From: an uncultured Spirochaetaceae bacterium
GTDB taxonomy: Bacteria > Spirochaetota > Spirochaetia > SZUA-6 > Bin103
NCBI GenBank assembly: GCA_964618015.1
Contig: CAZTZA010000004.1
Coordinates: forward strand, 1,440 to 65,439
Direction of reading: 5' to 3'
Length of the DNA: 64,000 bases
Below the pieces are notes generated by a model, which had not been told where the DNA came from, ran no database searches, and saw only the letters and a program-made list of their open reading frames with translations. Shown here piece by piece: positions 9,236 to 63,080 of this stretch (the first letter of the stretch is position 1; each line of letters starts with the position of its first letter). The position numbers and the translations under genes were made by a program.

Positions 9236-10222
9236 TCAGACCGCCTCGCGAATGCGAGGGTCAGTCATTACAAGCAGGATGTCAGAGATCAGGGTACCGA
9301 GTACGGTTAGGCTGCTAAGCACCATCACAATGCTTCCGGCTAGAAACATGTCCTGGCTAAGCAGTGCTTCTACGAACAGCGGCGCCACCGTGGGCAGGCC
9401 CATGACTAGCGATACCAGAAGTTCGCCTGACACCAACGCTGGCAATGTCCAGCCGATTGTGCTGATTATCGGGTTGAGTGCGATCCGTACCGGATATCGA
9501 AACAGAAGGCGTTGTTCTGATACGCCTTTAGCTCTGGCAACAGTAACGTAGAGCTTACGCAGTTCATCAAGCAAACTGGCGCGTACTACCCTGATTAGCG
9601 CTGCTGTTCCAGCAGTGGCAACGATTAAAGCGGGCATCCAAAGGTGTTTTATTAGGTCAATTAGCTTAGCAAGGCTCCACGGTTCCATGGCGTACTCAGG
9701 GGAGAACAGGCCGATTGCTGCGTTACCGGTAGCCGCGAAAGTTAACCATAGGAGTATCAGTGCGAAGAGGAAATTGGGGATCGCTAATCCTAGGAAGCCG
9801 ATAAAGGTAAATAGATAGTCACCCGGCGAGTACTGGCGAGTAGCAGAATAAATGCCAATAGGCAGCCCTATCAGATAGACTAGAACAAGTGAACTGATCG
9901 AGATCGCAAGACTCAGTGGTAGTCTATCTCCGATCAGTTCGGTGACCCTCATATTGTGGGCCATGGATCGTCCGAAATCACCCTGTAGGACACCCCAGAT
10001 CCACTTAAGGTATTGCGCATACACTGGGCGTTGCAGGCCGTAACGGACTTCCAGCGCTTCTATTCTAGCGTCGTCAAGTGCATCACCCCGCTGGCGCAGT
10101 TGTTCGATATAGTTGTCCAGGTAGTCGCCGGGAGGGAGTTGGATTATCAAGAATGAGAGGATCGAGATACCAAAGAGCGTTATGATCATGAGCCTTACTC
10201 GGCGAAAGATAGCTCGAATCAT
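9236..10222 (-). CDS. ABC transporter permease, OppB/DppB-like
   Basis: 'MIRAIFRRVRLMIITLFGISILSFLIIQLPPGDY' is the classic OppB N-terminus. Its stop abuts the start of the downstream permease. Confidence 0.8.
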   Translation of the reverse strand: MIRAIFRRVRLMIITLFGISILSFLIIQLPPGDYLDNYIEQLRQRGDALDDARIEALEVRYGLQRPVYAQYLKWIWGVLQGDFGRSMAHNMRVTELIGDRLPLSLAISISSLVLVYLIGLPIGIYSATRQYSPGDYLFTFIGFLGLAIPNFLFALILLWLTFAATGNAAIGLFSPEYAMEPWSLAKLIDLIKHLWMPALIVATAGTAALIRVVRASLLDELRKLYVTVARAKGVSEQRLLFRYPVRIALNPIISTIGWTLPALVSGELLVSLVMGLPTVAPLFVEALLSQDMFLAGSIVMVLSSLTVLGTLISDILLVMTDPRIREAV

Positions 10223-10572
10223 TGTTCTATAAGCCCGATAGAACCGATCATGTCATAGTTCATAGCATGGCTGTTGACATCGCATCGACCCCGTTGCTGC
10301 CTTGATTGGAACCTTCAATTCTGGGAATCTGGACAATATACTTCAAACAAAGGTCATCGTCAGGGGCTATCTCAATTTTCCGATAAGGTACGGTTGGTGA
10401 CCGTAATTCATGATTATCTATGAGGCTCAGGATAGCTGAGCTCGTTATATAGGGTTGGCGTCTTCTCGTAAGTTTAGAGTTATCACCAAGATGAATCCGG
10501 TATGTTTCTATTCGATTGAAGTGTTCTACTCCCGGTGGTGCAAGAAGCTTCCACCAGCTAAAGTTGAATTCC

Positions 10573-12009
10573 ATGAACATTGGTAACCGTAAACAGCTGC
10601 TTGTAGATAATTATGTGGTCGAAGATACGTGGAATCTTAAAAGGGTTGTCACAAGGCCGGTTAAGCACCACAAAAACCCGGTACTGTTAGCAGATCAGCC
10701 GTGGGAGGATTACAGTCGCCCTGGTCATCGGAGCAATAACAAGAGTCTGCATGCTACCGCTGTGCTGTACGATCAAGACGAAGGGTTATTTAAGCTTTGG
10801 TATAATTCTTCTCATTTTGTGCACTGGAACAGTCCTGAGGACAACACTTTTACTTATTGGATTGGCTACGCGACCTCTCAAGATGGGCTGGTATGGGAGA
10901 AGCCTAACGTTGGCTTGTTTGATTTTAACGGATCTAAGGAAAACAATGTTGTCCTTACAGGTGAATGGTGGGCGACTGGCGGTACGGTGCTTAAGGAGAA
11001 TCATGAGACTGATCCATCACGACGCTATAAACTGCTTTACACTGATATTTTTGGGGTTCAATCCCCAGAACGACTAGTTGAAGACGCGAAGGCTCACAAG
11101 CTGCGTCCCGGGATTTGTATTGCTTACTCGCCTGATGGAGTCCATTGGACTCCTCATGGAACTAATCCTGTAATCGAGGGTGAGTCCGATACGATGAACA
11201 CCATGTTCTGGGATGAACAACTTGAACGCTATGTCCTCTTCATGCGCCCACCCGTTTATGCCGGGCGTTGGAAGCGTCGTGTGGCACGTGCAGAGAGCCC
11301 TGATCTCATCAGATGGAGCTTCCCCGAGACGGTGGTAACACCCGATGAGCTTGATCCAGTCGAGATGTATGGAATGCCAGTGTTTCCTTACGAAGGGATC
11401 TATTTCGGGTTGTTGCAGATGTACTATTCTGACACTTCGATGACCATCGATACGCAATTGACTTTCAGTCGTGACGGAATTCTGTGGGATCGTTTGCCGA
11501 CACGTGAGACCTTTATGGAGCGAGGGATCGAACACGGTCAAGCGCGAGAATTTGATCGTGGGATGTTGTTTCCATTGCCTCCGGTCACTGTTGGAGATGA
11601 GTTGTGGTTTTACTACACTGGCCATAATGTCCTCCACAATGAGAAATCCGGATCTAATGAAAGTTCTGTTGGTTTAGCCATACTCAAACGCGATCGCTTT
11701 ATTGCCCGGACGCCTGTTCGTCCAAATGATGGGGTCTTGGTGACCAAGTCGTTTCCGTGTGAAGGGGACGAACTTTCAATAAACGCGTCAGCGTCGAATG
11801 GGCAAATTCAGGTAGAAGTGCTTACTGAAGCTGGAGAGGTCGTTGAAGGATTCGGCCGTGACGAGTGTCAACCATTCAAGAGCGATTCGTTCTCTCACTC
11901 TGTGCAGTGGAAGCGGGGAGCTCTGTCCTCCATTCGTGGCACAAGGATTCGGTTTAAATTTTTTCTAAACGAGGCTAGCTTGTACGCGTTCCAAGTCATG
12001 GAGCGGTAG
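10573..12009 (+). CDS. Putative glycoside hydrolase, five-bladed β-propeller fold (GH43/GH32-clan-like) with a C-terminal β-sandwich
   Basis: Repeated 'W..dG..W' blade-like motifs, acidic residues in the 'LLVDNYVVED' N-terminal blade, and the overall ~480 aa architecture. Family not resolved from sequence alone. Confidence 0.4.
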   Translation: MNIGNRKQLLVDNYVVEDTWNLKRVVTRPVKHHKNPVLLADQPWEDYSRPGHRSNNKSLHATAVLYDQDEGLFKLWYNSSHFVHWNSPEDNTFTYWIGYATSQDGLVWEKPNVGLFDFNGSKENNVVLTGEWWATGGTVLKENHETDPSRRYKLLYTDIFGVQSPERLVEDAKAHKLRPGICIAYSPDGVHWTPHGTNPVIEGESDTMNTMFWDEQLERYVLFMRPPVYAGRWKRRVARAESPDLIRWSFPETVVTPDELDPVEMYGMPVFPYEGIYFGLLQMYYSDTSMTIDTQLTFSRDGILWDRLPTRETFMERGIEHGQAREFDRGMLFPLPPVTVGDELWFYYTGHNVLHNEKSGSNESSVGLAILKRDRFIARTPVRPNDGVLVTKSFPCEGDELSINASASNGQIQVEVLTEAGEVVEGFGRDECQPFKSDSFSHSVQWKRGALSSIRGTRIRFKFFLNEASLYAFQVMER

Positions 12010-12042
12010 TAGCGCTTTCTATCTGATCCCGGCTGGATTTGA

Positions 12043-13095
12043 TTAGATTCTCCTGCGTTCCATGAGCCGCGTGAAAGACGCGGTAGCTGGGATATTTGCT
12101 AACACGATTCGTAATGCGGCGGTCATCGGTATCGCTAGTAGGGCTCCAGTTACTCCCCATAGCCATCCCCAGAAGAAGAGGGAGATGAATACTACCAGTA
12201 GGGATAAGTTCAAGGCGTCGCCGAGTAGTTTTGGCTCAAGGATGGTGCCAGTTAGGATCTGGGCGGCTGTTACACAAGCAACTACAGCAAAGGGGGTTAT
12301 CCCGCCGCCGAATTGGGCAAAGGAGAACAACGACACAGCGGCAACAGCACCAATAGATCCGATACTAGGAATGAAGTTGAGCAGGAAGGTGAGCAATCCC
12401 CAGACCACTGCAAATTGGACACCAAAGGCGAGCAAGATCAGGGTAGTTGTCGTGCCGATCGCAAGGCTGATCAATGTCTTAACGCTGATAAATCGGCGTA
12501 GTGATCGATCAATATCATGTAGCATTGCTGGTACCAGGCTGTCTGGCTTCGGAAAGGCATCATTTATTCTGCGTGCCAGCCGGTGTTTCGCGGATAAAAA
12601 TAGCAGTGCGAATAGGAATACCAGGAGAAACGAGGTCAAGCCTCGGAAGACTGATCGCACAGCACCGAGTGCCAACGACGAAAGTGAAGAGTTGCGCAGC
12701 GCCTGGCGTAGCTCGTGTAGAGGATCAAAGGAGTGTTCGACACCAGTGATACTTGCCACAGTCGTGACTAGGCCGCCACTTAAATTGTCGATTATTTCTA
12801 TAATGCGTGGCTGATAGTCTGGAAAGCCACGACTGAACTCAACCAGGCTTGCGTAGATGATCACGCCGATACTTCCGATTATGGATAGTGACAATATTCC
12901 CGCGAGAGGTACTGCCGCCCATAAAGGCAGGCCTATATGGGTACGCATAACCATAAGAAGTGGGTCAATTAGATAAGCTAACAATAATGCCACGAGGAAG
13001 AGAGTGAGGACCGGCTGTAACAGGTCCAACGCCACCCCTAAAGTTATAACGACAACGATGAACAAGAGAATGTTTATAGTGCGGATTTGGCTCAC
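12043..13095 (-). CDS. AI-2E family transporter (PerM/UPF0118 permease)
   Basis: Eight-TM protein with the typical N-terminal 'ILLFIVVVITLGVAL' region and a C-terminal 'PLLVVFISLFFWGWLWGVTGALLAIPMTAAL'-type segment. Confidence 0.75.
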   Translation of the reverse strand: MSQIRTINILLFIVVVITLGVALDLLQPVLTLFLVALLLAYLIDPLLMVMRTHIGLPLWAAVPLAGILSLSIIGSIGVIIYASLVEFSRGFPDYQPRIIEIIDNLSGGLVTTVASITGVEHSFDPLHELRQALRNSSLSSLALGAVRSVFRGLTSFLLVFLFALLFLSAKHRLARRINDAFPKPDSLVPAMLHDIDRSLRRFISVKTLISLAIGTTTTLILLAFGVQFAVVWGLLTFLLNFIPSIGSIGAVAAVSLFSFAQFGGGITPFAVVACVTAAQILTGTILEPKLLGDALNLSLLVVFISLFFWGWLWGVTGALLAIPMTAALRIVLANIPATASFTRLMERRRI

Positions 13096-13142
13096 GGATA
13101 GGTAGCATATCCTGCTAATCGTTCGGGTTACACTCTATTCTT

Positions 13143-13541
13143 ATGGGTAGTGTCTTTAGTCGTATAATTTCTGGGGAATTTCCTGCACATTTTGTGTGGA
13201 AGGATGAACGGTGTGTGGCCTTCCTGTCGATTAACCCTCTTGGCCCAGGCCATACGTTGGTCGTACCTCGTACTGAGGTTGACCACTGGATCGACCTTGA
13301 CGGTCAGACGTTGAAAGTACTAATGCAGGTGTCACAGACTGTAGCCCGTGCTTTACAGGTTGCATTCAATCCCACCAAAGTCGGGTTAATGATTGCTGGG
13401 CTCGAGGTGCCGCACGTTCATGTTCATCTCTGCCCTATCGACGGGCCCCATGATCTTGATTTGGCAAAAGCAGGGTCGAATCCGGGAGATACTGTCTTGG
13501 CAGAAATAGCTGCGCGGATCTCTGCTGAACTTCCTCAGTAG
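13143..13541 (+). CDS. HIT family (histidine triad) nucleotide hydrolase
   Basis: Histidine triad 'VPHVHVHLCP' and upstream 'PLGPGHTLVVPR'. Confidence 0.85.
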   Translation: MGSVFSRIISGEFPAHFVWKDERCVAFLSINPLGPGHTLVVPRTEVDHWIDLDGQTLKVLMQVSQTVARALQVAFNPTKVGLMIAGLEVPHVHVHLCPIDGPHDLDLAKAGSNPGDTVLAEIAARISAELPQ

Positions 13542-13560
13542 TCAACTGGAGTTAGATTAG

Positions 13561-14259
13561 ATGAATTTTCTAGGAACTCTTTCTGATGGATCTTATCGAG
13601 GACGCGGATTAGCGTTGGGTTTGGCGCCAGACGGTGAGCAATTAGCAATTGTCTACTGGATAACGGGTCGGAGTGCACGTAGCCGCAATCGACGGTTGGT
13701 AGAATTGACCAATGGTACTTTGTGCACAGAATTCATTGATACTACTCGTCGTGACAATCCAGCGTTAGTAGTTTACCCGCTACTGATGAATCTTGGAGTC
13801 ACTTACGCGATCAGTAATGGAGAACATACCAAGCCAATTTTGGAGGCTGTGAATTCCGGAGACACTCTGGAGCGCGCGATCCAGGAGTGGACAGTCGAGC
13901 CTGATGAACTCAACACGCCGCGGATCGTAGGGACTGCATCTGACAAATCGCCCGATTCATGCCGTATCGGGTTGGTGCGCACGAGTGTTAGTACTGTGAG
14001 AACAGAGACGGAGCGCTGTGTGTTTTGCTACAGCTGTCTGTTGCCAGGATCTGGGCGCTGCATTTCTACCTATGCCGGTGGTTCTATGGAGCCTACACCT
14101 TTTGTGGGGGATCCTTTGAGTGTGACTTTCGAGGGCAACGTGGATGCGACCTGTGCGCGATTTCGGGACGCTTTGGCCGGTCCTCTATTGGTTAGCGTTG
14201 CTGCTCGTTTCGTTGGGCACGGCAAATGCTATACCGCTATAGCTAACCTGCAGGAGTGA
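13561..14259 (+). CDS. purO: IMP cyclohydrolase, archaeal PurO-type (IMP_cyclohyd family)
   Basis: 'AISNGEHT' corresponds to PurO 'VVSNGSHT', and 'EPDELNTPRIVGTA' to PurO 'EKDELNTPRIAAA'. Length ~230 aa. This rests on my recollection of archaeal PurO sequences. Confidence 0.55.
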   Translation: MNFLGTLSDGSYRGRGLALGLAPDGEQLAIVYWITGRSARSRNRRLVELTNGTLCTEFIDTTRRDNPALVVYPLLMNLGVTYAISNGEHTKPILEAVNSGDTLERAIQEWTVEPDELNTPRIVGTASDKSPDSCRIGLVRTSVSTVRTETERCVFCYSCLLPGSGRCISTYAGGSMEPTPFVGDPLSVTFEGNVDATCARFRDALAGPLLVSVAARFVGHGKCYTAIANLQE

Positions 14260-14265
14260 GTTCCG

Positions 14266-15243
14266 TTGATAGCAGTTATTGTTGACAACGATAAGAATAA
14301 AACGCTCCTTTGTAAGGAAATAGATGACCCTATTCAGCCCTCGGATGGCTACGTTCTAGTTGATGTAGCAGCCACTGCGGTAAATCGTGCTGATCTTTTA
14401 CAACGAGCTGGTCGGTATCCACCGCCTCTGGGGGCTCCTGAAACCTTAGGCTTAGAGATTGCTGGTCGAATCAGTCAGATTGGTGAGGCCGTAACTGGCT
14501 GGTCAGTTGGTGACCGAGTCTGCGCAATCGTTACTGGGGGCGGCTACGCAGAACGTTGTTGGGTCCATGCTGGTAGTCTGATGATGGTTCCGGAGCCTCT
14601 CTCACTATTAGAGGCTGCTGCAGTGCCGGAGGCATTTTTGACCGCGTTCGTGAACCTCTTCGAAGAGGCTCAGTTGAACCCGGGCGAGTCGGTCTTAATC
14701 CATGGAGGCGCTAGCGGAGTGGGTACGGCAGCGATCCAGCTTGCGGTAGCTTCTGGTTGCCGTGTAGCGGTAACGGCGCGGGATGAACGCAAGCTCGAAG
14801 CGTGCCGCAGTTTAGGTGCGGAGCTTACTATCGACCATACCAGACAGAATTTTGCCGCTGTAATTGAGGAGACTTGGGGAGGCGTTGATGTGATTCTCGA
14901 CATAGTCGGCGCTGACTACGTAGCACGTAATCTAAGTTCGCTCAGGACTCAAGGTCGGATGGTGCTAATAGCAACTTTGAGCGGCGGTGTAGCTACCGTT
15001 GACTTGACAAAAATGATGCAAAACCGATTGCGCTTGGTAGGCTCTGTTTTACGTGCACGATCGGATTCGGAAAAAGCAAAAATCACAGCCGGATTCACGA
15101 GTCATTTTCTTCCAATGTTCTGCAAAGGTCAGCTGAAGCCCGTTATTGATCGCACGTTTCCAATCCGCGCGGTGCAAGAAGCTCACACAGTTGTAGAGCA
15201 CTTCCAAAATGTGGGTAAAGTTGTTATGTCGGTCCTGGGGTAG
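14266..15243 (+). CDS. NAD(P)H:quinone oxidoreductase, MDR family (Qor/PIG3-like)
   Basis: 'GYVLVDVAATAVNRADLLQRAGRYPPP' and the NADPH-binding 'LIHGGASGVGTAAIQLA'. Confidence 0.8.
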   Translation: MIAVIVDNDKNKTLLCKEIDDPIQPSDGYVLVDVAATAVNRADLLQRAGRYPPPLGAPETLGLEIAGRISQIGEAVTGWSVGDRVCAIVTGGGYAERCWVHAGSLMMVPEPLSLLEAAAVPEAFLTAFVNLFEEAQLNPGESVLIHGGASGVGTAAIQLAVASGCRVAVTARDERKLEACRSLGAELTIDHTRQNFAAVIEETWGGVDVILDIVGADYVARNLSSLRTQGRMVLIATLSGGVATVDLTKMMQNRLRLVGSVLRARSDSEKAKITAGFTSHFLPMFCKGQLKPVIDRTFPIRAVQEAHTVVEHFQNVGKVVMSVLG

Positions 15244-15257
15244 AATCACGTCTGGTT

Positions 15258-15680
15258 ATGGCACTAGTGAAAGCAAGCGGTGCAGTTATCTTTCGGCAGA
15301 CTGACAGTAATTTGGAGTTTCTTATAGTGGAATCTCGGCTACGGGCTGGTTCCTGGGGATTGGTCAAGGGAAAAATAGAGGAGGGGGAGACTGAATATCA
15401 GGCGGCTCAGAGGGAGATCGTTGAGGAGGTCGGGCTGAGTTCTCTCATATTTTTAACTGGATTTCGAGAGGAAGTACGCTACACTTTACCTTCAGGCGAT
15501 GAGAAGGTAGTGGTCTATTTCCTTTCAGAAGCACATGAGCTGGAAATTACCCTCCAAGAAGAGGAGCTGTCTGACTATCGTTGGATCTCTTATCCTATTA
15601 TTTGTAAGGCATTAAGTTTTCCAGACACATGTCGCGTGGTCAAGAATGCAGTCTCCTACTTAGATAGGATATGCCCGTGA
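15258..15680 (+). CDS. NUDIX hydrolase
   Basis: Nudix box 'GKIEEGETEYQAAQREIVEEVGL' (GX5EX7REUXEEXGU). Confidence 0.8.
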   Translation: MALVKASGAVIFRQTDSNLEFLIVESRLRAGSWGLVKGKIEEGETEYQAAQREIVEEVGLSSLIFLTGFREEVRYTLPSGDEKVVVYFLSEAHELEITLQEEELSDYRWISYPIICKALSFPDTCRVVKNAVSYLDRICP

Positions 15681-16660
15681 GCAAGATATCTGATCACTCA
15701 CTTCAGCGCCCACAGGCCGAGGAGCTCGACAAGATTCTGGGCCATCGACTACAGGTGCTGGATGATGGATTTATCCGAGTTGTTGACTATCTCGGTAACG
15801 ACAGCGCGATCGTTCAAGCGGCTCGAGTCTCTTACGGTGAGGGGACTCGTCGCGTAAGTGATGACCGTGGTCTGTTTCGTTACCTGATGCGTCACCACCA
15901 CACTACGCCGTTTGAAATGTGCGAGGTGAAGCTACACGTTCGGGTTCCGATGGATGCGTGGAGACAGTGGATTCGCCACCGGACAGCGTCGGTCAACGAA
16001 ATTTCGACGCGCTATTCTATTGCAATCGATGCTGCTCAGATTACGCAGCCTACTGAGTGGCGCACACAAGCAGTTGGTAATCGGCAGGGATCAGGTGGTC
16101 CGGTGGACGAATCAATGGGGTTGCGACTTACTGCGACGGAAGCAGAGATACAACGGCAGGCACGTGCAGTTTATCAGGAGCGCTTGGAATTGGGCGTGGC
16201 ACGGGAGCAAGCGCGCAAAGATCTTCCACTTTCCACTTATACCGAGGCTTACTGGAAGATTGACTTGCACAATCTGGTCCATTTTTTAGCGCTTCGTATG
16301 CATGATCATGCTCAGTACGAAATTCGCAGCTATGCACATCTTATCGGCTTTCAGGTGGTTGCACGCTGGTGTCCGTTAGCGTGGGAGGCGTTCTGTGATT
16401 ACCGGCTTCATGCGACAGGATGGAGCCGCATAGAGACAGATATCCTCGCTCGCTTAGTTGTAGGCGACGTACAGGGTTCCCTTGCGATAGCACGCGAAGC
16501 GGGTTGGTTGAGGGCGCAACGTGGAGAGACGGGGACTAGTCGTCTGGCGCGTAATCGAGAACGGGCTGAAGCGGAAGTAAAGTTACGAGGGTTAGGTCTA
16601 CAAGTGCCGTGGGATCACCCTGCTTCGGGTCACGACATAGCTGATGAAGGTTCTGGCTAA
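15671..16660 (+). CDS. thyX: FAD-dependent thymidylate synthase ThyX
   Basis: ThyX signature 'RHRTASVNEISTRYS' (RHRxxSxxExSxRY) and 'HHTTPFEMCEVKLHV'. Confidence 0.9.
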   Translation: MPVSKISDHSLQRPQAEELDKILGHRLQVLDDGFIRVVDYLGNDSAIVQAARVSYGEGTRRVSDDRGLFRYLMRHHHTTPFEMCEVKLHVRVPMDAWRQWIRHRTASVNEISTRYSIAIDAAQITQPTEWRTQAVGNRQGSGGPVDESMGLRLTATEAEIQRQARAVYQERLELGVAREQARKDLPLSTYTEAYWKIDLHNLVHFLALRMHDHAQYEIRSYAHLIGFQVVARWCPLAWEAFCDYRLHATGWSRIETDILARLVVGDVQGSLAIAREAGWLRAQRGETGTSRLARNRERAEAEVKLRGLGLQVPWDHPASGHDIADEGSG

Positions 16661-16668
16661 GAGCAAAG

Positions 16669-17235
16669 ATGGACTGGCCACGATGGAATGCGGTTTGGAT
16701 GTTGGCGAGTGTGGCCATTTTGATTGCCGCTATGGGTTGTAGCAACAATAAAAACGACAAGAGCCTTATGCAAGACAACCTACCGATGGCTCCGGATTTT
16801 GTATTTGAGGCCTATCAGGGCGAAGACGAGCTTGGCGGCAAGGAACTTAGTCTAAGCGACGTTATCACTTTGGTTAAACCGATCATCCTTAATTTCTGGG
16901 CAGCTCGTTGCCCTCCCTGTCAGATAGAGATGCCCGAGTTTCAGGAATACTACAATAAGCACCTCAAGAAGGTGCTTATGATCGGGATTGACGTAGGATA
17001 CTTGACCGGCCTAGGTCTACAGGAGGAGGCGATGGCGTTGTTGCAAGTGCTTGAGATCTCCTACCCGAATGTAACTACCGCTGATACCGATATCGCAGAG
17101 GCATATGAGCTCTTGGGATTACCAGCTACCTTTTTCATTAATTCTTCTGGACGCATTGTAGAATCCTGGACCGGCTTACTCACCAAGGAAAAGCTATGGG
17201 AGCTAGCGGGTATGTTGATCGACTCAGAACGGTAG
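16669..17235 (+). CDS. TlpA/ResA-like thiol:disulfide oxidoreductase, probable lipoprotein
   Basis: Thioredoxin-fold 'NFWAARCPPCQIEMPEF' (CxxC) and a lipobox-like 'IAAMGC'. The start could instead be the internal ATG at 16699. Confidence 0.75.
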   Translation: MDWPRWNAVWMLASVAILIAAMGCSNNKNDKSLMQDNLPMAPDFVFEAYQGEDELGGKELSLSDVITLVKPIILNFWAARCPPCQIEMPEFQEYYNKHLKKVLMIGIDVGYLTGLGLQEEAMALLQVLEISYPNVTTADTDIAEAYELLGLPATFFINSSGRIVESWTGLLTKEKLWELAGMLIDSER

Positions 17236-17239
17236 GAAG

Positions 17240-18094
17240 GTGGAAAGTGTAACGAGCGGCGGGCAAGGTGGATCCGGTCAAATTACTTGGTGGTTGGTGA
17301 TCTGGTACTACGTAGTACCGGTGGCAGGAGTTATAGCCGTTGTGTATATACTCACTCTCCTGCAGGCACGAGCGGAAAATGCCGCCACGGAGTTTGCACG
17401 CTCAGTTCAGCTTGGGACAGCGTTCGGAGCGGGCATAGTTGCGAGCGTCAATCCATGCGGCTTCATTATGTTACCTACATACCTGTCGTTGCAGTTAGGC
17501 ACACAGGAGTCAGGGGGCACTAATGAACCTTGGCTTCACCGGGTGGTATCGGTGGTACGCATTTCTGTCGCTACTACGATGGGTTTTATTGGCGTAGTAG
17601 CCCCAGTGGGAGTATTGGTAGCGTTAGCAGGACAGGCGCTTTCGCCAATTTTGCCGTATGCAGCGGTGACGGTAGGATCCGGAATGGTCGGGCTGGCTTT
17701 ATGGCTCCTGGTCTCCGGCCGCAAGCTTGGCATTGCCGCCGCCAGCCGTGTTCATGTAACGCCTAGTCGCAACACAGTGAATGCATTACTGTTTCGCATG
17801 ACGTATTCCATCGCATCGTTGAGCTGCGCTTTGCCAATTTTCCTGTTGGTGGTATCGACCGCACTGACTTCCGGCGGTTTTCTGTCCACGATTGCGCAGT
17901 TCGTGAGCTACGCTCTTGGAATGGGAACGGTAATCACAGTGGTCACTGTCGCTGCTGCAGCACTCCGTAACTCACTATCCCAACATTTGCGCGTGTTAAT
18001 GCCGGTCGCCAACCATGTCGGCGTACTGTTCCTCCTTGGGGCAGGAGCTTATTTGATCTACTATTGGGTATTGATAGCTCCGAACGCCTTTTAG
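17240..18094 (+). CDS. ccdA: Cytochrome c-type biogenesis protein CcdA (DsbD-like transmembrane thiol transfer)
   Basis: Multi-TM protein with the first conserved Cys in 'VNPCGFIMLPTYL' and the second in 'LSCALPIFLL'. GTG start. Confidence 0.7.
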   Translation: MESVTSGGQGGSGQITWWLVIWYYVVPVAGVIAVVYILTLLQARAENAATEFARSVQLGTAFGAGIVASVNPCGFIMLPTYLSLQLGTQESGGTNEPWLHRVVSVVRISVATTMGFIGVVAPVGVLVALAGQALSPILPYAAVTVGSGMVGLALWLLVSGRKLGIAAASRVHVTPSRNTVNALLFRMTYSIASLSCALPIFLLVVSTALTSGGFLSTIAQFVSYALGMGTVITVVTVAAAALRNSLSQHLRVLMPVANHVGVLFLLGAGAYLIYYWVLIAPNAF

Positions 18095-18149
18095 AATCCA
18101 ATGGAGATTAACCGGGCATTTGGAATCTTCCAAAGGTAATCTATTCCTG

Positions 18150-19064
18150 ATGCTATTCCTGCCTGTATCTGAAATCGAAGTTTTGCTTCCTGGATTGGTC
18201 CTGTTGGGAGGAATTGTCGGCGTTCTTACTGGTCTGTTTGGCGTGGGTGGTGGTTTTCTGCTTACGCCATCTCTCAAGTCTCTCTTTGGGGTGCCGTACC
18301 CCATCGCTGTGGGCAGCGATTTGGTGCAGATCTTTTTAACTAGCACCGTGTCTACATATCAGCATCTGCGTGCTGGAAACGTCGATCTGCGTCTCGGTTT
18401 GATACTATCAATCGGGGCAGTCGCTGGGGTTGAGGTTGGCGTGAATAGTCTTGGTGCCCTTCGTTCAATCGGGCCGGTGGCGGTTAATGGCATCAGAACA
18501 TCCTTTTTGGACTTAGCGCTGAACGGATTGTTTCTGTTCTTGTTATTGTCGGTCGCAATTATTATATGGAGAGAAGTCAAATTCTCTGGTGGCGCTACTA
18601 CGGAAACGGACACACGTGCAGCTCAATTACTTCGCAGGATAAGGTTGGGGCCCCAGATTTCATTTTCGCATTCAGAATCGGATAGCATTTCCGTTTGGGC
18701 TCCTCTTATCATCGGCTTCGGGGTTGGCATTTTGACTGGCCTGATGGGCATAGGGGGTGGAATTTTAAATTTTCCGTTGTTGATCTATGTCATAGGCCTG
18801 CCAACACGCATCGCTATCGGGACTAGTTCGCTACAGGTCGTGATTGCTTCGGGTTATGGTGCGATCCGCCACTTCATGGCAGGAAACGTTGAGTTGGTTT
18901 TAGTTCTTATTCTTTTTGTGGGATCAGTTGTAGGTGTCCAAATAGGTGTAAAATTTTCTCAACGCTTCCAGAGTCTGCGTATTCGTCGCTTGGTTGCAAG
19001 CGTACTTATACTTGCTATTGGACTAATTATATGGGATGTGAGCAAGCAGGTTTTCTCAGGTTAA
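18150..19064 (+). CDS. TauE/SafE (TSUP, DUF81) family anion exporter
   Basis: Duplicated 4-TM halves each with the 'G(x)GGG' motif ('LFGVGGGFLLTPSL', 'LMGIGGGILNFPLLIYV'). A longer ORF begins at a TTG at 18120. Confidence 0.7.
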   Translation: MLFLPVSEIEVLLPGLVLLGGIVGVLTGLFGVGGGFLLTPSLKSLFGVPYPIAVGSDLVQIFLTSTVSTYQHLRAGNVDLRLGLILSIGAVAGVEVGVNSLGALRSIGPVAVNGIRTSFLDLALNGLFLFLLLSVAIIIWREVKFSGGATTETDTRAAQLLRRIRLGPQISFSHSESDSISVWAPLIIGFGVGILTGLMGIGGGILNFPLLIYVIGLPTRIAIGTSSLQVVIASGYGAIRHFMAGNVELVLVLILFVGSVVGVQIGVKFSQRFQSLRIRRLVASVLILAIGLIIWDVSKQVFSG

Positions 19065-19369
19065 GATATGTGTTGACTATACAAGTGTCGGCGATGAAGA
19101 TTCCTGAAAGTTTTTTATCTTTTGTGATCTCCGAATCGCACAGAAGATGGATGAGGGGTTCTGCTGCATCTATCTTATGAACTGTTCGCCCTGCTACTCT
19201 CTGAGTGGGAGGGATATAATGGAAGTTCTCACTGAACTTCTTTCCAGGATTCAATCAAATGTAATCAGTAGTAGTGCTGAGTAATCACGAAGAGCCGGTC
19301 GGGATATCTATATGGCTATCTAACTCGCACTAGTGGACAAGAATTTTGGCAAATTAACGAGGAGACACT

Positions 19370-20407
19370 ATGAGCACAGGGATTAGGGTCGGCGTGATAG
19401 GGGCCGGGGCCAACACACGGAGTATGCACATTCCGCGGCTGCAGGCGATCGACGGTGTTACGGTGATGAGTGTTTGTAATCGATCTCACGAGTCTGGCGC
19501 GAAAGTAGCCGCCCAGTTTGGAATTCCGGAAGTACTTCCTTCCTGGCGATCTGTGGTAGATGCGGACGACGTGGATGCGATCGTGATAGGGACCTGGCCT
19601 TATCTGCACAAAACGGTTTCGATCGCTGCACTGGAGTCTGGAAAGCATGTGCTGTGCGAGGCTCGTATGGCGTGCGATGCTGCGGATGCACAGCTGATGC
19701 TCAGAAGCTCGCGTGAACAACCAGAGTTGGTTGCGCAGCTTGTACCGTCACCGATGACTCTGCGAGTCGATCGCACTATTCAGCGACTGATTGGCGATGA
19801 ATTCCTGGGAGACCTGCTGGCCGTGGAAGCGCGGATTTATAGTGGATTTCTTGATCGCACGGCCCCCCTGCACTGGCGTCAGGACGCTGAGTTGTCCGGC
19901 CGCAATATCATGACCATGGGTATTTGGTATGAAGCAATGATGCGTTGGGTAGGTACAGCTAGTCACGTTTCTGCTATGGGAAAGACTTTCGTGTCGCGCC
20001 GTCTTGATGCGTCCGGAATATTACGGGATGCAATAGTACCAGAGCATATTGACGTCACTGGCGAACTGCACTGCGGTGCACAGCTCCATATGCAAATTTC
20101 AGCCGTGGCGGGGCTTTCAGGATCCTCAGAGGTATTCCTGTTTGGATCTGACGGCACAATTCGCTACGATGGTGGCACCGACACGGTCTGGGTCGGAAGC
20201 CGTGAGGAAAAGGCGCTCACGGAGGAGGAGGTGCGTCCTGGTGAAGCGCTTTCCTGGCGGGTAGAGGAAGAATTCGTTGCCGCCATCCGTGGTGAGGAAC
20301 AGGTTGTGCTGACACCATTTAGCGTTGGATTGCAGTATATGGAATTCACCGACGCCGTGGCGCGTAGTATCGCTCAACGGCAGGTAGTCCCGGTGGGACT
20401 TGCATAG
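19370..20407 (+). CDS. Gfo/Idh/MocA family NAD(P)-dependent sugar oxidoreductase
   Basis: 'IRVGVIGAGANTRSMHIPRL' Rossmann N-terminus and the 'EKP' -> 'ESGKHVLCE' motif. Confidence 0.8.
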   Translation: MSTGIRVGVIGAGANTRSMHIPRLQAIDGVTVMSVCNRSHESGAKVAAQFGIPEVLPSWRSVVDADDVDAIVIGTWPYLHKTVSIAALESGKHVLCEARMACDAADAQLMLRSSREQPELVAQLVPSPMTLRVDRTIQRLIGDEFLGDLLAVEARIYSGFLDRTAPLHWRQDAELSGRNIMTMGIWYEAMMRWVGTASHVSAMGKTFVSRRLDASGILRDAIVPEHIDVTGELHCGAQLHMQISAVAGLSGSSEVFLFGSDGTIRYDGGTDTVWVGSREEKALTEEEVRPGEALSWRVEEEFVAAIRGEEQVVLTPFSVGLQYMEFTDAVARSIAQRQVVPVGLA

Positions 20408-20432
20408 CACAGTATCCTAAGTTTAGACGGTC

Positions 20433-21212
20433 ATGGATTTTTTTGCGCTCGCTTTACTAATGATTGTTGGTGTTATGGGCGGCTTCTTGAATACGGTGGC
20501 TGGCGGTGGCAGTGCACTAACCATGCCGATGCTGATCTTCTTAGGATTGCCGTCCACCGTGGCCAATGGCACGGCACGGGTAGCGATTATGTTTCAGAAC
20601 ATAACTGCTGTTGCTAGTTTTAAAGGAAAGGGGCACTTCGAGCCGGTGCTTAGTCTTCAACTGGGAATACCGGCTCTATTGGGAGCTTTAGTTGGCTCAC
20701 GGATTGCAATTCAACTCCCCGATTCGGTATTTAACACCGTCCTATCCGGTGTAATGGTTCTGGTTCTGATTTCAATCTTTTTTAAGCCTAACCGGATCGT
20801 TGCAGAACCTGACACTTCGCACTCAGGTCTTACTCGAGAACGGCGCTTCGGGATCATGGCGATTTTCTTTGTCATTGGCGTATACGGAGGATTTATCCAG
20901 GCAGGGGTCGGTTTTTTGATCATGAGTTCGCTGATTTTTCTTAGTAGCTACAATCTAGTGCGTATCAATGCAATAAAAGTGTCTGTGATTTTAGTTTTTA
21001 CTGTAGCAGCGCTTATTGTTTTCCTGCTGAATGGAAAAGTGGCATGGGGCCCAGGACTAATACTAGCCTTAGGCAACGCCGCTGGCGCTTGGTTGGGAGC
21101 ACGCTTTTCAGTAGCGGGCGGCGAGTCATGGATCCGAGTGTTCCTTGTGGTTGCCGTTCTTGTGATGGCAGTAAGAGTTTCTGGGCTACTGGAGTTGCTG
21201 GGCATCGTATAG
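20433..21212 (+). CDS. TauE/SafE (TSUP) family anion exporter, second copy
   Basis: 'LLMIVGVMGGFLNTVAGGGSALTMPMLIFLGL', 8 TM. Sits 26 nt after the oxidoreductase. Confidence 0.7.
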   Translation: MDFFALALLMIVGVMGGFLNTVAGGGSALTMPMLIFLGLPSTVANGTARVAIMFQNITAVASFKGKGHFEPVLSLQLGIPALLGALVGSRIAIQLPDSVFNTVLSGVMVLVLISIFFKPNRIVAEPDTSHSGLTRERRFGIMAIFFVIGVYGGFIQAGVGFLIMSSLIFLSSYNLVRINAIKVSVILVFTVAALIVFLLNGKVAWGPGLILALGNAAGAWLGARFSVAGGESWIRVFLVVAVLVMAVRVSGLLELLGIV

Positions 21213-21228
21213 CTTGGTGCGTTGGGGT

Positions 21229-22023
21229 ATGGTCCATTTGATTATGCCTGTAAAAGAAAACGCGGTAGTGCGTAAGCTTGCGGCTGGTGAGGTTCCGATT
21301 GGGGTGCTCGGGACCGACGCGGTTCATGAGTCCCATATAGAGCTCTTGCAGGAAGCTGGTTATGACTTTCTTATGTTTGATGGCGAGCACGGCGATTTCC
21401 CATCTGATCGTATCTCTTCGATTTGTCGCATTGGACGTCTAACCGGGTTCCCGGTGATTCTGCGAACGTTTTGCACTTATGAGCACATTCGCCGTGCATT
21501 GGATCTTGGCTCGCTCGGTGTGATCTTGCCAATGGTTGATACCGCTGAGCAAGTTGACACAATACGTCGTGCAGCTTTTATGCCTCCAATTGGTGAGAGG
21601 GGCCCAGGGGGTCACGGTAATCATCATGTTAGCGACTATCGTCGCGAGACCTGGGCGGAGCTGGAGGAGCAGTTGGCTATCATTCCGATGATAGAGACGC
21701 CGGGTGCTCTCCAAAATTTATCGATATTTGATCAACCTTGGGTAACTGCTTGCTTGGTTGGGCCGTACGATTTTTTGATGTCTCATGGCATGGATTTGAC
21801 CAATTTCTATCAGCCCGGAGGTTCACATGAATCGATAGTGCGTCGCGCTATCGATGGATGTGTGGCAATAGGAAAACCGTGTGGCACAGTAGTCGCCAAC
21901 GCAAAGATGGCGGTACGCTGGATAGGTATGGGTGCGAAGCTTATCGTCTGTGGTGAGTTGAATAGGATGATAGTTGATGCAGCAGTTCATAACATTAAAG
22001 TCATCAAGCACGAGACCGGCTAA
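21229..22023 (+). CDS. HpcH/HpaI family aldolase (2-keto-3-deoxy-sugar-acid aldolase, class II pyruvate aldolase)
   Basis: 'GVLGTDAVHESHIELLQEAGYDFLMFDGEHGDF' and 'ILPMVDTAEQVDTIRRAA' match HpcH/HpaI/YfaU (KDR aldolase). A TTG at 21214 directly follows the TauE stop; the ATG is at 21229. Confidence 0.7.
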   Translation: MVHLIMPVKENAVVRKLAAGEVPIGVLGTDAVHESHIELLQEAGYDFLMFDGEHGDFPSDRISSICRIGRLTGFPVILRTFCTYEHIRRALDLGSLGVILPMVDTAEQVDTIRRAAFMPPIGERGPGGHGNHHVSDYRRETWAELEEQLAIIPMIETPGALQNLSIFDQPWVTACLVGPYDFLMSHGMDLTNFYQPGGSHESIVRRAIDGCVAIGKPCGTVVANAKMAVRWIGMGAKLIVCGELNRMIVDAAVHNIKVIKHETG

Positions 22024-22033
22024 CGTTTAGCCC

Positions 22034-23062
22034 ATGGCGGATCACCCCCTGTACCCAACCGAACTTATAGGCAGCTATGCTTTGCCTGGCTGGCTAATTG
22101 CCTTCGAAGAACGAGCTGCTGCAGAAGATCTCGGCGATTCAGATATCGGCGAGGCACTTGATGACGCAGTTAACGTGGCATTATTTGATCAGGAGCGCGC
22201 TGGCGTAGACGTAGTCACCGATGGTGAGATGCGACGTCGCGACTTTATTCAGGGATTTTACGGTCGCATTACCGGCCTAACATCTCTGCCACCCAAGCGT
22301 TTGTTAGGGGCTGCTGGTTACGACCAAAACCCGCGTTACCGGGTTGACGGACAGCTTTGCGCCACAGGCGGCCTTGGTATTTGCGCCGAGGTGGATTATC
22401 TGCGCCATCTTACTGATAAACCGATCAAGGTTTGTGTGCCAGGCCCGGTTACCATGTCATTACCACTTTTACTTCCGGATGGCGGACGAAGTCGCGATGC
22501 AGTGCTGGCTGATATGATTTCCATTATTAACGCCGAGATGCAATCTCTAGTAGCTGCCGGCGTTACCTATTTGCAGATCGATGAGCCGCGGTATGCTACC
22601 AGCCACGCTGCCGGAGAAGAGTTAGTAGAGGTATTGAATGCAACTTACGATGGAGTGAAGGCCCGGGTCGGCGTGCACTTGTGTTTCGGCAATTTCAAAG
22701 GTCGCTCACGAGATCGTCGAGACTACCGATACCTTTTCCCAGCACTTAAAAAGGTGCGCTGTAGTCAACTCAATTTCGAGTTTGCTAACCGCGAGCTATC
22801 ACAGATTGAATTGTTGGCAGAAGTACCAGCGTCGATCGATGTGGGCGTTGGGGTGATAGACGTGAAGTCCTACTACGTGGAGCGGGCTGAAGAAGTGGCC
22901 ACTGCCCTGGAGAAGGCCGCCCTCCATATTGACGCTACCCGAATAGTCGCTGTCCCAGACTGTGGACTTAATCACTGTCCACGTCATATTGCCCGTGCCA
23001 AACTACGGGCGCTGACTGCCGGTGCGCAGATAGCTCGGCAGCGAGAAGGAGTGGGCCCATGA
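22034..23062 (+). CDS. MetE C-terminal-domain-like Zn-dependent thiol methyltransferase (cobalamin-independent methionine synthase family, stand-alone ~340 aa)
   Basis: URO-D/CIMS-like C-terminal domain with the Zn-ligand motifs 'HLCFGNF' (HxC) and 'PDCGLNHCPRH' (Cys). The N-terminal region 'PTELIGSYALPGW' corresponds to MetE 'TTTIGSFPR'. Confidence 0.6.
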   Translation: MADHPLYPTELIGSYALPGWLIAFEERAAAEDLGDSDIGEALDDAVNVALFDQERAGVDVVTDGEMRRRDFIQGFYGRITGLTSLPPKRLLGAAGYDQNPRYRVDGQLCATGGLGICAEVDYLRHLTDKPIKVCVPGPVTMSLPLLLPDGGRSRDAVLADMISIINAEMQSLVAAGVTYLQIDEPRYATSHAAGEELVEVLNATYDGVKARVGVHLCFGNFKGRSRDRRDYRYLFPALKKVRCSQLNFEFANRELSQIELLAEVPASIDVGVGVIDVKSYYVERAEEVATALEKAALHIDATRIVAVPDCGLNHCPRHIARAKLRALTAGAQIARQREGVGP

Positions 23063-24161: not shown

Positions 24162-25088
24162 GTGATTCATCGATTTCTCATTGGTATCTCATCTAGCAAC
24201 GGCACGCCGCGCGCTCAGGTTGACTTGGACGGCGCGGGTAAGCGTCACCTTGGCATTCAGCGGTTCGTGCTATCCGACGGTACTGATGCCGTCTTGCCCG
24301 ATCATCCTACTTGGGATTGTCGCGAGTGGCAGTGGTGGGCTGGTTATGACGGCTCGACGGAGATGAGGCCGCGCACAGAATCTGCAGTATGCGGAGGTTC
24401 TGAACGTGACGATGTAGCCGAGGTTTGGAGCGAGTATCTTTGTGACGGCGTACGGACGCGACACGTATGGACTGTTCCTACTGTTCAAGAGCCACCGAGT
24501 CTTGGTTACGATTGTTTCATCACTGTCACTAATGAAACGGGGACTGACCTTAGAGAGTATGGTCAGTTCTTCGCCTGCTACACTAGTCTCAACCGGACCA
24601 TGGGTAAAAGGCCTGCTCGGTCGGATGCAATAGGCTGCTGGTTCTGGGATGGATCAGGAAGTTTAGTCAATTTCCTCGCGATCGGTGGTTACCATATAGA
24701 TCGCCTAATCGTTGACCCAGAAAGTGTCTATTCGAAGATAGGCATGGTTCCCCATTGCCCGCGTGGAGATGGTCGCGTCGGCGGGGTTTGGACGCACCCA
24801 GTAATAGTTTCTCATCCAGCTCCAGGTGGTGAGCGTCATATTATCCTTCTCGAGCCAGGAACTACCGCAGCAGTGTGTATGGGTATGGGAGGACTAGCGA
24901 TGGACTACATTGTCTTTCCAGGGTCTCTCGTGTTCGCTGCTGGAAGCAGCAGTAGGACCAGGGTTAGGCACTATGTCATGCCCCTTCCAGAAGGCAAAGA
25001 GATCGAACGTTTAAGCGAGCTCTGGGCAGAATTCGAAATAGACCTCCATCAGCCATGGCCGACTATCGGTCCAACGCAGGCTAAATAG
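24162..25088 (+). CDS. Hypothetical protein, 308 aa, Trp/Cys/Gly-rich, no recognisable family
   Basis: Long ORF with a GTG start 40 nt after the upstream gene, co-oriented with the operon. I recognise no motif. Confidence 0.45.
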   Translation: MIHRFLIGISSSNGTPRAQVDLDGAGKRHLGIQRFVLSDGTDAVLPDHPTWDCREWQWWAGYDGSTEMRPRTESAVCGGSERDDVAEVWSEYLCDGVRTRHVWTVPTVQEPPSLGYDCFITVTNETGTDLREYGQFFACYTSLNRTMGKRPARSDAIGCWFWDGSGSLVNFLAIGGYHIDRLIVDPESVYSKIGMVPHCPRGDGRVGGVWTHPVIVSHPAPGGERHIILLEPGTTAAVCMGMGGLAMDYIVFPGSLVFAAGSSSRTRVRHYVMPLPEGKEIERLSELWAEFEIDLHQPWPTIGPTQAK

Positions 25089-26250: not shown

Positions 26251-27201
26251 ATGGTACACGCGCATCACAAGTCATTTGGATCTAGGCTTTTTGACATTGC
26301 CAATTCATTCTTTATTCTTACCATTGGTCTAACAGCGCTGTACCCATTTCTCCATATGGCAGCGATATCTACGAGCGATTTCTTTGCTGTCGGATTTGGT
26401 AAAGTAAGTATACTTCCTGTTGACTTCAGCCTAGATATCTATACTTACCTGTTTCAGTATAATCCATTTATCGGTCGTGCTTACTTTAATTCTATTCTAT
26501 ATACTGTTTTAAACACTTTCCTCACGGTCTTGCTGTGCGCTATGGCCGGCTTTGCCCTTGCGCAACGTAGATTAGCATTTCGCGGATTCTCGGGAACCCT
26601 ATTGTTGGTCTCAATGTTCTTTGGGGGTGGCCTGATCCCGACCTTTCTGTGGATTAGAGAGCTCGGTATGTTGAATTCAATATGGTCAATCGTGCTGCCG
26701 AACGCGGTGGCGGCCTACTATGTATTTCTATTTCGGGTTTATATCCACAGTAACGTTAGTGAGGAGATTCTGGAGTCCGTTTACATCGATGGTGGCGGGG
26801 ATTTTCGAGTTTTCTTCAAGATTGTAATGCCCCTTATCAAGCCGATGATAGCAACGATTGGGTTATTTGCGGCCGTAGCCATGTGGAATTCTTTTTTCAG
26901 TGCTCTAATATATTTAAGCGACCGTAACAAGTACCCGCTAACGCTTTTCTTGAGGGAAGTAGCCGTGATCGGTGGCTTTGGAGGATCCAGTGTAGGTGGC
27001 CCTGATGCGGGTGCGGAGCAGCTCACTGCCTATGAGATGGAGGGACAGTTCGACGCTTCTCTTGAAGTATGGCAGGGCGGTTATTTGAAGGCAACGCAGA
27101 TGGCATTCACGCTGATCACTGTAATTCCGGTTCTCTTTGTGTACCCATTTGCACAGCGATATTTTGTTAAAGGTATCACAATAGGGTCTGTAAAAGGATA
27201 A
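26251..27201 (+). CDS. Carbohydrate ABC transporter permease, LplC/YtcQ-like (MalG-type)
   Basis: 'ESVYIDGGGDFRVFFKIVMPLIKPMIATIG' EAA region. Starts 2 nt after the upstream permease. Confidence 0.8.
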   Translation: MVHAHHKSFGSRLFDIANSFFILTIGLTALYPFLHMAAISTSDFFAVGFGKVSILPVDFSLDIYTYLFQYNPFIGRAYFNSILYTVLNTFLTVLLCAMAGFALAQRRLAFRGFSGTLLLVSMFFGGGLIPTFLWIRELGMLNSIWSIVLPNAVAAYYVFLFRVYIHSNVSEEILESVYIDGGGDFRVFFKIVMPLIKPMIATIGLFAAVAMWNSFFSALIYLSDRNKYPLTLFLREVAVIGGFGGSSVGGPDAGAEQLTAYEMEGQFDASLEVWQGGYLKATQMAFTLITVIPVLFVYPFAQRYFVKGITIGSVKG

Positions 27202-29014: not shown

Positions 29015-29042
29015 GCGCCAGGTCTCTTGACGAGGCTGATGA

Positions 29043-29085
29043 CGGTCGGACTGGGGCGGATGCTTCAGTCTGACCGTTTTTTTTT
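29043..29085 (+). terminator. Rho-independent terminator after the binding-protein gene
   Basis: 11-bp stem CGGTCGGACTG / CAGTCTGACCG with one G·U pair, a 12-nt loop, then T9. Confidence 0.7.
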
Positions 29086-30732: not shown

Positions 30733-30789
30733 AAAGTTGTTTTCTCTGCTATCAATAAGATAGACAGAGCTACGGATATTCTAAGAGAA

Positions 30790-32598: not shown

Positions 32599-33171
32599 AT
32601 GAGTTGGCAGGAATTCAGAGCAGGTGCGATTCGATATTTCACAGTGCTAGGGGTAATCACCGCGATCATTGTAATAGTCGCCCTGTTTTCACTACGAACA
32701 AAAGTCGCAAGTAAGTTGTATGAGCATCGTGCAGGGCGTAGTGTTGTTGGAGTATGGGAGGGCGAGCGTGAGTCGGGAACGCTCAAAGACATTCCGTTGA
32801 TCCGAGCTCGATGGGTGTTCACAGAAAGTAGCTTTACGTTAAATACTGACTACTATTATGAGGATTCCGGTGCGTGGCAGCGTGTCCACGAGATGCAGGG
32901 TGATTATGAATATATTCGGAAAGGTGGTCTAAGACCTTCAAAGGTGTCGTTGAGCAGCGTAACTGTGCGGAGGGCCAGCAGCTCCAAAAGTACAGACCCA
33001 ATTAATCTACGGTATGCGTTACGGCTGGATCCAGTAGATGACACAATGGATAAGTGGAATTCTCCAAGGATTGAATACCCGGATTTAACCGTTCGTTATT
33101 CAAAGGACAGCAAAACCCTGAGCATTGGCACGAATTTGATTGGGGTGGCCAGTTATGAAAAGGTCGAATGA
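32599..33171 (+). CDS. Hypothetical single-pass membrane protein (190 aa)
   Basis: One TM ('FTVLGVITAIIVIVALF') followed by a Tyr-rich soluble domain; no known motif. Confidence 0.4.
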   Translation: MSWQEFRAGAIRYFTVLGVITAIIVIVALFSLRTKVASKLYEHRAGRSVVGVWEGERESGTLKDIPLIRARWVFTESSFTLNTDYYYEDSGAWQRVHEMQGDYEYIRKGGLRPSKVSLSSVTVRRASSSKSTDPINLRYALRLDPVDDTMDKWNSPRIEYPDLTVRYSKDSKTLSIGTNLIGVASYEKVE

Positions 33172-62833: not shown

Positions 62834-62921
62834 CGCCTTTGTTTCATCGCGGGGCTCTGGATCAGCGCAGAAGCAGCCGGCGCCCAACTCTCACATGGGA
62901 CGCACATGGGCCTACGCCCAA

Positions 62922-63080
62922 CCGAACTTCTCCTATCCGGACTTTACCGTCGGCACCGGAATTTCACCGGTTCCTACCCAATACTTACGAATCAGGCTCA
63001 CGGGCTATCACCGTCGGTCTGGAATAGGCGCCAGTCATGACGCCGCACCATGCCCCGAAGTTCTCTTCTAATGAACAGGC
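62922..63080 (-). promoter_or_regulatory. FMN riboswitch (RFN element) in the ribD leader
   Basis: The minus strand reads 'AGAAGAGAACTTCGGGGCATGGTGCGGCG...GACCGACGGTGATAGCCCGTGAGCC...CCGGTGAAATTCCGGTGCCGACGGTAAAGTCCGGATAGGAGAAG'. This matches the conserved RFN blocks (UCUUCGGGGCAGGGUGAAAUUCCC / GCCGACAGUAUAGUCUGGAUGGGAGAAG), including the P1 5'/3' complementarity. Confidence 0.8.

Follow-up and report, generated by a model that had tools for sequence, protein, structure and literature searches.

A divergent PurO-like gene of the bacterial branch in a conserved nucleotide-metabolism block of an uncultured Spirochaetaceae bacterium

The PurO-like gene and the block that contains it

A 64,000-nucleotide stretch of contig CAZTZA010000004.1 (assembly GCA_964618015.1), from an uncultured Spirochaetaceae bacterium and referred to here as the window, contains a gene whose product resembles the inosine monophosphate (IMP) cyclohydrolase PurO. 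The open reading frame (ORF) was found at exactly the position, and on the strand, reported in a first-pass annotation of this DNA (Table 1), and it is intact and full-length. That annotation had also placed the protein in the Pfam family PF07826 (IMP_cyclohyd), an assignment established by a profile search: the match covered profile positions 1-183 of 192 and reached 88.9 bits (E = 4.3e-25), the gathering threshold of the family being 28.1 bits. An exact-sequence look-up of the protein returned no identical record.

An AlphaFold2 model built on an alignment of 24 orthologues from the same clade (mean column identity 83%, 93 invariant columns) had a predicted local distance difference test score of 88.7 and a predicted template modelling (TM) score of 0.89. 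The modelled protein shows the PurO-type N-terminal nucleophile (Ntn) hydrolase fold (alpha-beta-beta-alpha), and its top structural matches were the Methanothermobacter PurO structures (Foldseek E = 1e-11, TM 0.63-0.72).

The residues that characterize the family were retained. Among 148 bacterial PurO-like representatives, 28 positions are conserved at 90% or above, and the protein of the window matches at every one of them; 19 of the 28 are also identical in archaeal PurO (Y12, G14, R15, G20, Y32, R37, S38, Y72, N86, G87, T90, E113, D115, T119, R121, I122, G163, T170 and Y171). Papers that cite Kang et al. 2007 (PMC3261824, PMC6486802) give PurO about 13-14 substrate-contacting residues. 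In our own mafft --auto alignment, with contact residues taken from citing papers (PMC6486802, PMC3261824, PMC6797443), residues R37, R42, Y72, N86, E113, D115, T119 and R121 align to R25, R30, Y59, N73, E104, D106, T110 and R112 of the archaeal PurO MTH1020; these eight residues are invariant across the 24 orthologues. Positions 24, 54 and 56 of MTH1020 differ in the window protein, and the same three positions have been reported to be variable in bacterial PurOs (PMC6486802). For archaeal PurO it has been proposed that an Arg, a Glu and a Tyr stabilize the iminol tautomer of 5-formamidoimidazole-4-carboxamide ribotide (FAICAR) and activate ring closure (PMC6797443). A similar catalytic pocket in the present protein would draw on R37 or R42, E113 and Y72 as candidates for these roles. 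Ahead of the first strand the clade has no invariant Thr, Ser or Cys (T, S and G all occur at residue 11); this lack of a conserved N-terminal nucleophile is consistent with the non-proteolytic use that PurO makes of the Ntn-hydrolase fold, and the product is predicted to be a non-proteolytic enzyme of that kind.

The gene lies in a row of closely spaced genes, separated by distances that range from a 10-nt overlap to 19 nt. The nucleotide-metabolism block HIT-PurO-Qor-NUDIX-ThyX described in the first-pass annotation was recovered, each neighbour being confirmed by a Pfam or TIGR model, and it continues into a redoxin gene and a gene for a conserved 284-residue protein. Since this tight spacing resembles that of a single operon, the genes from HIT to redoxin are probably co-transcribed. 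Scans for consensus promoters and terminators were uninformative, the matches being at or below the number expected from shuffled sequences.

A scan that took one genome per species identified 13 related loci in chromosome-scale metagenome-assembled genomes (MAGs) deposited as 'Spirochaetia bacterium', with protein identities of 58-64%. All 13 are collinear with the window: an AI-2E transporter gene on the opposite strand is followed by HIT, PurO-like, Qor, NUDIX, ThyX, redoxin and the 284-residue putative membrane protein. The latter is 71-81% identical and always directly follows the redoxin gene in the related loci; it may be a CcdA/DsbD-like partner in thiol-disulfide transfer. The lineage that carries the block is marine and host-associated, and has been deposited as 'Spirochaetia' MAGs. 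A 97%-identical copy with the same arrangement was present on marine metagenome contigs from Tara Oceans, JGI and Logan. In one deposited MAG isolate the HIT-PurO-Qor-NUDIX-ThyX block was found on two 'chromosomes' (OZ219914.1, chromosome 2, and OZ219913.1, chromosome 1), which could reflect a duplication or two co-binned strains.

The NUDIX and ThyX genes are separate, overlapping ORFs both in the window (15258-16660) and in the 97%-identical relative (locus L019, 8158-9560), while in the approximately 60%-identical 'Spirochaetia' MAGs the two are joined in a single ORF encoding 462-466 residues (for example, locus L001, 11691-13088). A frameshift artefact was considered as a source of the split and rejected, as this pair of overlapping genes recurs in the 97%-identical relative. 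This alternation between fusion and fission links the Nudix pyrophosphatase functionally to thymidylate synthesis.

Table 1. Positions of the PurO-like gene, its block and other features of the window
Feature	Coordinates	Strand	Evidence and remarks
HIT-family protein (HinT-like)	13143-13541	+	PF01230, 73.4 bits; first gene of block; 19 nt upstream of PurO-like gene
GGAG, Shine-Dalgarno-like	13547-13550	+	About 10 nt 5' of the PurO-like ATG; putative, read from the sequence
PurO-like gene, bacterial branch; putative IMP cyclohydrolase	13561-14259	+	PF07826; 232 aa, ATG to stop
PIG3-family NAD(P)H quinone oxidoreductase (Qor)	14266-15243	+	TIGR02824, 391 bits (cut-off 296.8); 6 nt downstream of PurO-like gene
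NUDIX hydrolase	15258-15680	+	PF00293, 64.4 bits; 10-nt overlap with start of ThyX
ThyX, flavin-dependent thymidylate synthase	15671-16660	+	TIGR02170, 172.6 bits (cut-off 87.9)
Redoxin / AhpC-TSA thiol-disulfide oxidoreductase	16669-17235	+	PF00578, PF08534; 8 nt downstream of ThyX
284-aa conserved protein	17240-18094	+	No Pfam match; predicted membrane protein from its hydrophobic sequence; last closely spaced gene of block
Amidohydro_2 plus class-III aminotransferase domains	37707-40046	-	One 779-aa ORF
PurN, folate-dependent glycinamide ribonucleotide (GAR) formyltransferase	47310-47897	-	PF00551, 125 bits; TIGR00639, 150.4 bits (cut-off 150.1; marginal)
RibH	59983-60453	-	Riboflavin operon
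RibE::RibB fusion	60450-61682	-	Two Lum_binding plus DHBP_synthase; riboflavin operon
RibD	61664-62887	-	Riboflavin operon
Flavin mononucleotide (FMN) riboswitch	62921-63066	-	Rfam, 93.4 bits; heads riboflavin operon (59983-63066)

Placement within the bacterial branch

The curated NCBIfam equivalog models for PurO, TIGR01922 (purO_arch) and NF003167, are both archaeal, with cut-offs of 158.35 and 150 bits. The window protein scored 38.4 and 43.4 bits on them, below both cut-offs. Such failure is not specific to this protein, since six other bacterial PF07826 proteins, some of them named 'IMP cyclohydrolase' by NCBI, obtained similarly low scores (31-56 bits). Two hidden Markov models (HMMs) were compared, one built from the 148 bacterial representatives, with the clade of the window excluded, and the other from 16 PurOs of Methanobacteriales. 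Their scores for the window protein were 206 bits (bacterial HMM) and 31 bits (archaeal HMM). With archaea represented by Methanobacteriales, a neighbour-joining tree (100 bootstraps) grouped the protein with bacteria and not with archaea: the archaeal sequences were split from the clade of the window plus the bacteria in 100% of the replicates, and that clade was nested among bacterial sequences in 94%. At all eight comparable conserved positions that discriminate between the branches the protein shows the bacterial state (among them G36/S24, S41/N29, N43, R44, T56, L69/Y56 and G165, the second residue of each pair being that of MTH1020). It also lacks the four-residue archaeal insertion and has a C-terminus of the longer, bacterial kind.

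These results agree with what has been published. Homologues of purO were reported in 22 of 1266 complete bacterial genomes, Spirochaetes among them (Cruz et al. 2019, PMC6486802), and they form a separate clade outside the archaeal one with conserved active-site residues (PMC6486802), a point repeated in PMC6797443. The premise of the first-pass annotation that PurO is characteristic of Archaea thus needs correction, and so does its description of the present gene as archaeal-type. From its sequence, the gene is a member of a divergent clade within the already described bacterial PurO-like branch, and is not archaeal-type in the strict sense.

The divergence of this clade is considerable. When 1.84 billion cluster representatives were searched exhaustively with a profile, at least 2000 relatives were returned; the clade of the window formed a single cluster at 50% identity, and the score fell from 479 bits to 167 bits at the next representative. 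The closest named matches in the profile search were bacterial (Lambdaproteobacteria, Thermobacillus, KSB1 and Sphaerochaeta). Identity to other bacterial PurO-like proteins was 26-38%, leaving the clade on a long isolated branch. Aligned over its whole length, the protein shared 31% identity with the PurO half of a Sphaerochaeta pleomorpha fusion protein (E = 7e-27).

The first-pass annotation had further proposed that an archaeal-type PurO may have been acquired horizontally from Archaea, giving rise to a mosaic purine pathway. In its favour, the solved structures and the curated equivalog models of the family are all archaeal, and the segment EPDELNTPRI of the window protein almost equals EKDELNTPRI of MTH1020, most bacterial members having D-A-P-N-T-P-R-I there. 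This origin nonetheless appears very unlikely. Besides the equivalog and HMM scores, the tree, the discriminating residues and the published phylogeny described above, all of which argue against it, the composition of the gene (GC content 0.516, or 0.481 at third codon positions) is like that of its neighbours and of the whole window (0.511). Moreover, since the gene order of the block is kept throughout the MAG lineage, at about 60% protein identity, the PurO-like gene is an old resident of this lineage that has been inherited vertically.

Purine pathway context and possible functions

Besides the PurO-like gene, the window contains a single gene of the purine pathway, purN, which lies 33 kb away and is unlinked to the block. 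The first-pass annotation had called it a folate-type PurN, and this holds, although TIGR00639 was passed narrowly. Its presence shows that de novo purine synthesis is at least partly encoded in this bacterium. The PurO-like gene lies outside any pur operon, both in the window and in all of its relatives. The Pfam scan, which covered selected window ORFs of at least 100 residues with the permease at 9236-10222 left out, detected neither an AICARFT domain (PF01808; formyltransferase of 5-aminoimidazole-4-carboxamide ribotide, AICAR) nor an MGS-like domain (PF02142), and no AICARFT or MGS-type gene was found within 10 kb in any of 22 related loci. A tblastn comparison with the products of S. pleomorpha purE, purC, purF, purM, purNO, purV, purD and purL, run against the window and 21 loci, matched nothing beyond the PurO-like gene and PurN.

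Other bacteria indicate what a PurO-like protein might do in such a pathway. In the Thermobacillus locus, purS-purQ-purL-purF-purM-purN are followed by a 392-residue AICARFT-only gene, purO and purD. The S. pleomorpha locus (L018, CP003155.1) contains purE-purC-purF-purM, a purN::purO fusion (10001-11290) whose PurN half passes TIGR00639 with 178 bits, a 392-residue AICARFT-only gene and purD-purL. In both, the PurO-like module fills the place of the missing cyclohydrolase domain of PurH. Fusions of PurN to PurO of about 430 residues were widespread in Sphaerochaeta and Clostridia (at least 120 clusters), and a PurS-like::PurO fusion of 333 residues also exists. NCBI names the PurN::PurO fusions solely 'phosphoribosylglycinamide formyltransferase', the cyclohydrolase half being left unannotated. 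Among the 22 published genomes with a bacterial purO, 19 have purV and lack purH, while three have both purH and purO; a PurO-type cyclohydrolase combined with folate-dependent transformylases is the usual pattern (PMC6486802).

On this basis it is probable, although by no means secure, that the PurO-like gene encodes a working FAICAR-to-IMP cyclohydrolase that is partnered by a folate-dependent AICAR formyltransferase encoded elsewhere. The enzyme would catalyse the last step of purine synthesis, FAICAR being formed from AICAR by a formyltransferase whose gene would lie outside the window. By analogy with other purO-bearing bacteria, this partner would probably be a stand-alone PurV devoid of the PurH cyclohydrolase domain. 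The gene has been passed down vertically in the marine and host-associated lineage, where it probably shares a transcript with the HIT, Qor, NUDIX, ThyX and redoxin genes.

Several observations weigh against this assignment. They include the lack of pur context and of an AICARFT or MGS-type gene noted above, the long isolated branch, and an Rfam scan at gathering thresholds in which the FMN riboswitch was the only hit, with no purine or ZTP (AICAR triphosphate) riboswitch upstream of the PurO-like gene. In addition, no experimentally characterized bacterial PurO was present in the literature found, and most of the codons that distinguish the gene from its closest relative are non-synonymous (see below). 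The absence of pur context is not unusual, however, because other bacterial PurO-like genes also stand alone: 15 of the 22 published bacterial purO genes are in a pur context and seven are outside (PMC6486802), and two of the nearest representatives of the clade are also isolated from pur operons.

Alternatively, the protein might be a diverged paralogue that acts on another formamido or ring-opened nucleotide within a nucleotide-housekeeping operon, an ordinary PurH encoded elsewhere performing the de novo step. This is somewhat unlikely, but several facts favour it. The HIT-PurO-Qor-NUDIX-ThyX-redoxin arrangement was kept in all 13 loci and never adjoined pur genes; the clade is a long isolated branch; and replacements specific to the clade adjoin conserved motifs. 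Residue 112, which precedes E113, is A in the clade and V in the window, but Y or F in 123 of the 148 bacterial members and in MTH1020, and residue 13 is R in the clade versus P in bacteria. The three genomes with both purH and purO, and the seven purO genes outside a pur context, also fit such a paralogue. Against it, the protein keeps all the residues conserved in the bacterial branch, including all those shared with characterized archaeal PurO, and the switch to a new substrate usually brings replacements among such residues. Lone bacterial PurO-like genes outside pur operons are known elsewhere too, and direct evidence for any alternative substrate was lacking. More specifically, the PurO fold could have been co-opted into an operon for nucleotide-pool maintenance that comprises the genes for the HIT phosphoramidase, NUDIX, ThyX, the quinone oxidoreductase and redoxin, and would there have a formamido or ring-opened purine nucleotide as its substrate instead of FAICAR. 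Examples would be the re-closing or processing of oxidatively ring-opened (formamidopyrimidine-type) nucleotides, or a purine ring-opening step tied to the GTP cyclohydrolase II that appears to be missing from the riboflavin operon. Together with these examples, co-option seems quite improbable; the sole arguments for it are the length of the branch and a gene context that is both unusual and strictly conserved. None of the scanned window ORFs carries a GTP cyclohydrolase II domain, and nothing was found to support the parallel that the first-pass annotation had drawn between the missing RibA and the PurO-like gene.

The comparison with the 97%-identical relative raises the question of whether the gene is decaying. 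Over the region compared (10516-23062), nucleotide identity was 99.9-100% at 10516-13541; downstream of a point near codon 128 of the PurO-like gene it was 93-97%. Within this gene seven codons differ, six of them non-synonymously (residues 128, 146, 149, 156, 159 and 169), and the relative has the clade consensus residue at these six positions (T169 to S and G159 to C are examples). This pattern could point to a decaying or non-functional copy in this strain. Yet the frame is intact and full-length, the 28 family-conserved residues are all retained, and the changes fall at positions that are variable or, if nearly invariant, are conservative replacements. Further, the changes start exactly where the regional identity drops from about 100% to 93-97%, and several downstream genes show a synonymous to non-synonymous ratio of about 1:1, so that an apparent recombination breakpoint inside the PurO-like gene would explain them as a mosaic rather than as decay. 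We regard decay of the gene as extremely doubtful. Relaxed selection on the gene was set aside for the same reason, as the non-synonymous changes begin at a breakpoint that affects the whole downstream region.

Some features of the window lie apart from these subjects. At 27296-32328 on the + strand, a 572-residue ORF that matches no Pfam family precedes two FG-GAP/ASPIC-UnbV repeat proteins, and further ORFs without a Pfam match, of 190-388 residues, were found at 57-668, 24162-25088, 26251-27201, 32599-33171 and 52306-53472. GC skew was steadily positive over 1-34000, and almost every gene there is on the + strand, as would be expected of a leading-strand segment; at about 34-40 kb, where genes change strand, the skew became flat or reversed.

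Relation to known PurO proteins and other systems

The significance of these results beyond annotation is small. They correct the notion that a PF07826 match in a bacterium means archaeal ancestry, and add a divergent clade from marine and host-associated bacteria to the known bacterial PurO-like branch. Because the NCBIfam equivalog models cover the archaeal branch only, bacterial members can be named solely by their Pfam domain. If the lineage lacks the PurH cyclohydrolase domain, the PurO-like gene would encode the essential last enzyme of its purine pathway. Any bacterial PurO would be a useful test case, as none was biochemically characterized in the literature found.

One comparison is with the classical Ntn hydrolases (proteasome beta subunits, penicillin V acylase / bile-salt hydrolase, and acid ceramidase / N-acylethanolamine-hydrolysing acid amidase), with which the window protein shares 4-11% sequence identity. 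Unlike them, it lacks a conserved Thr, Ser or Cys as N-terminal nucleophile: in its clade, the position preceding Y12 is occupied by T, S or G. The cyclohydrolase domain of PurH, which was not found among the scanned window ORFs, is expected to perform the same reaction (FAICAR to IMP), and its operon slot is taken by the PurO-like gene in other bacteria. Its fold and sequence are unrelated to those of PurO, making it a functional analogue only (PMC6797443).

Archaeal PurO is represented by MTH1020 (PDB 2NTK, 2NTL, 2NTM and 1KUU), MJ0626 and TK0430, and by the models TIGR01922 and NF003167. It has in common with the window protein 19 conserved residues, among them the candidate catalytic Arg, Glu and Tyr and the DxxNTPRI motif, and both presumably catalyse the same reaction. 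The window protein differs from it in three replacements (in MTH1020 numbering, S24 to G, N29 to S, Y56 to L), in a four-residue deletion, in being longer by 11 residues at the N-terminus and by about 30 at the C-terminus, in failing both equivalog cut-offs, and in belonging to a bacterial host with a folate-type PurN.

The closest systems are the bacterial PurO-like proteins (Cruz et al. 2019, PMC6486802; for example, Thermobacillus WP_296978296.1 and the Sphaerochaeta PurN::PurO fusions), which belong to the same Pfam family and appear at NCBI under the names 'IMP cyclohydrolase' and 'inosine monophosphate cyclohydrolase'. The window protein resembles them in the 28 conserved residues, the signature residues, the insertions and deletions, the 206 bits obtained on their HMM, and the length of about 230-255 residues, compared with about 200 in archaeal members. 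It differs from the other bacterial proteins in its 26-38% identity to them, which places it in a cluster of its own, and in that its gene, neither part of a pur operon nor fused to purN, is embedded in a conserved HIT-Qor-NUDIX-ThyX-redoxin block.
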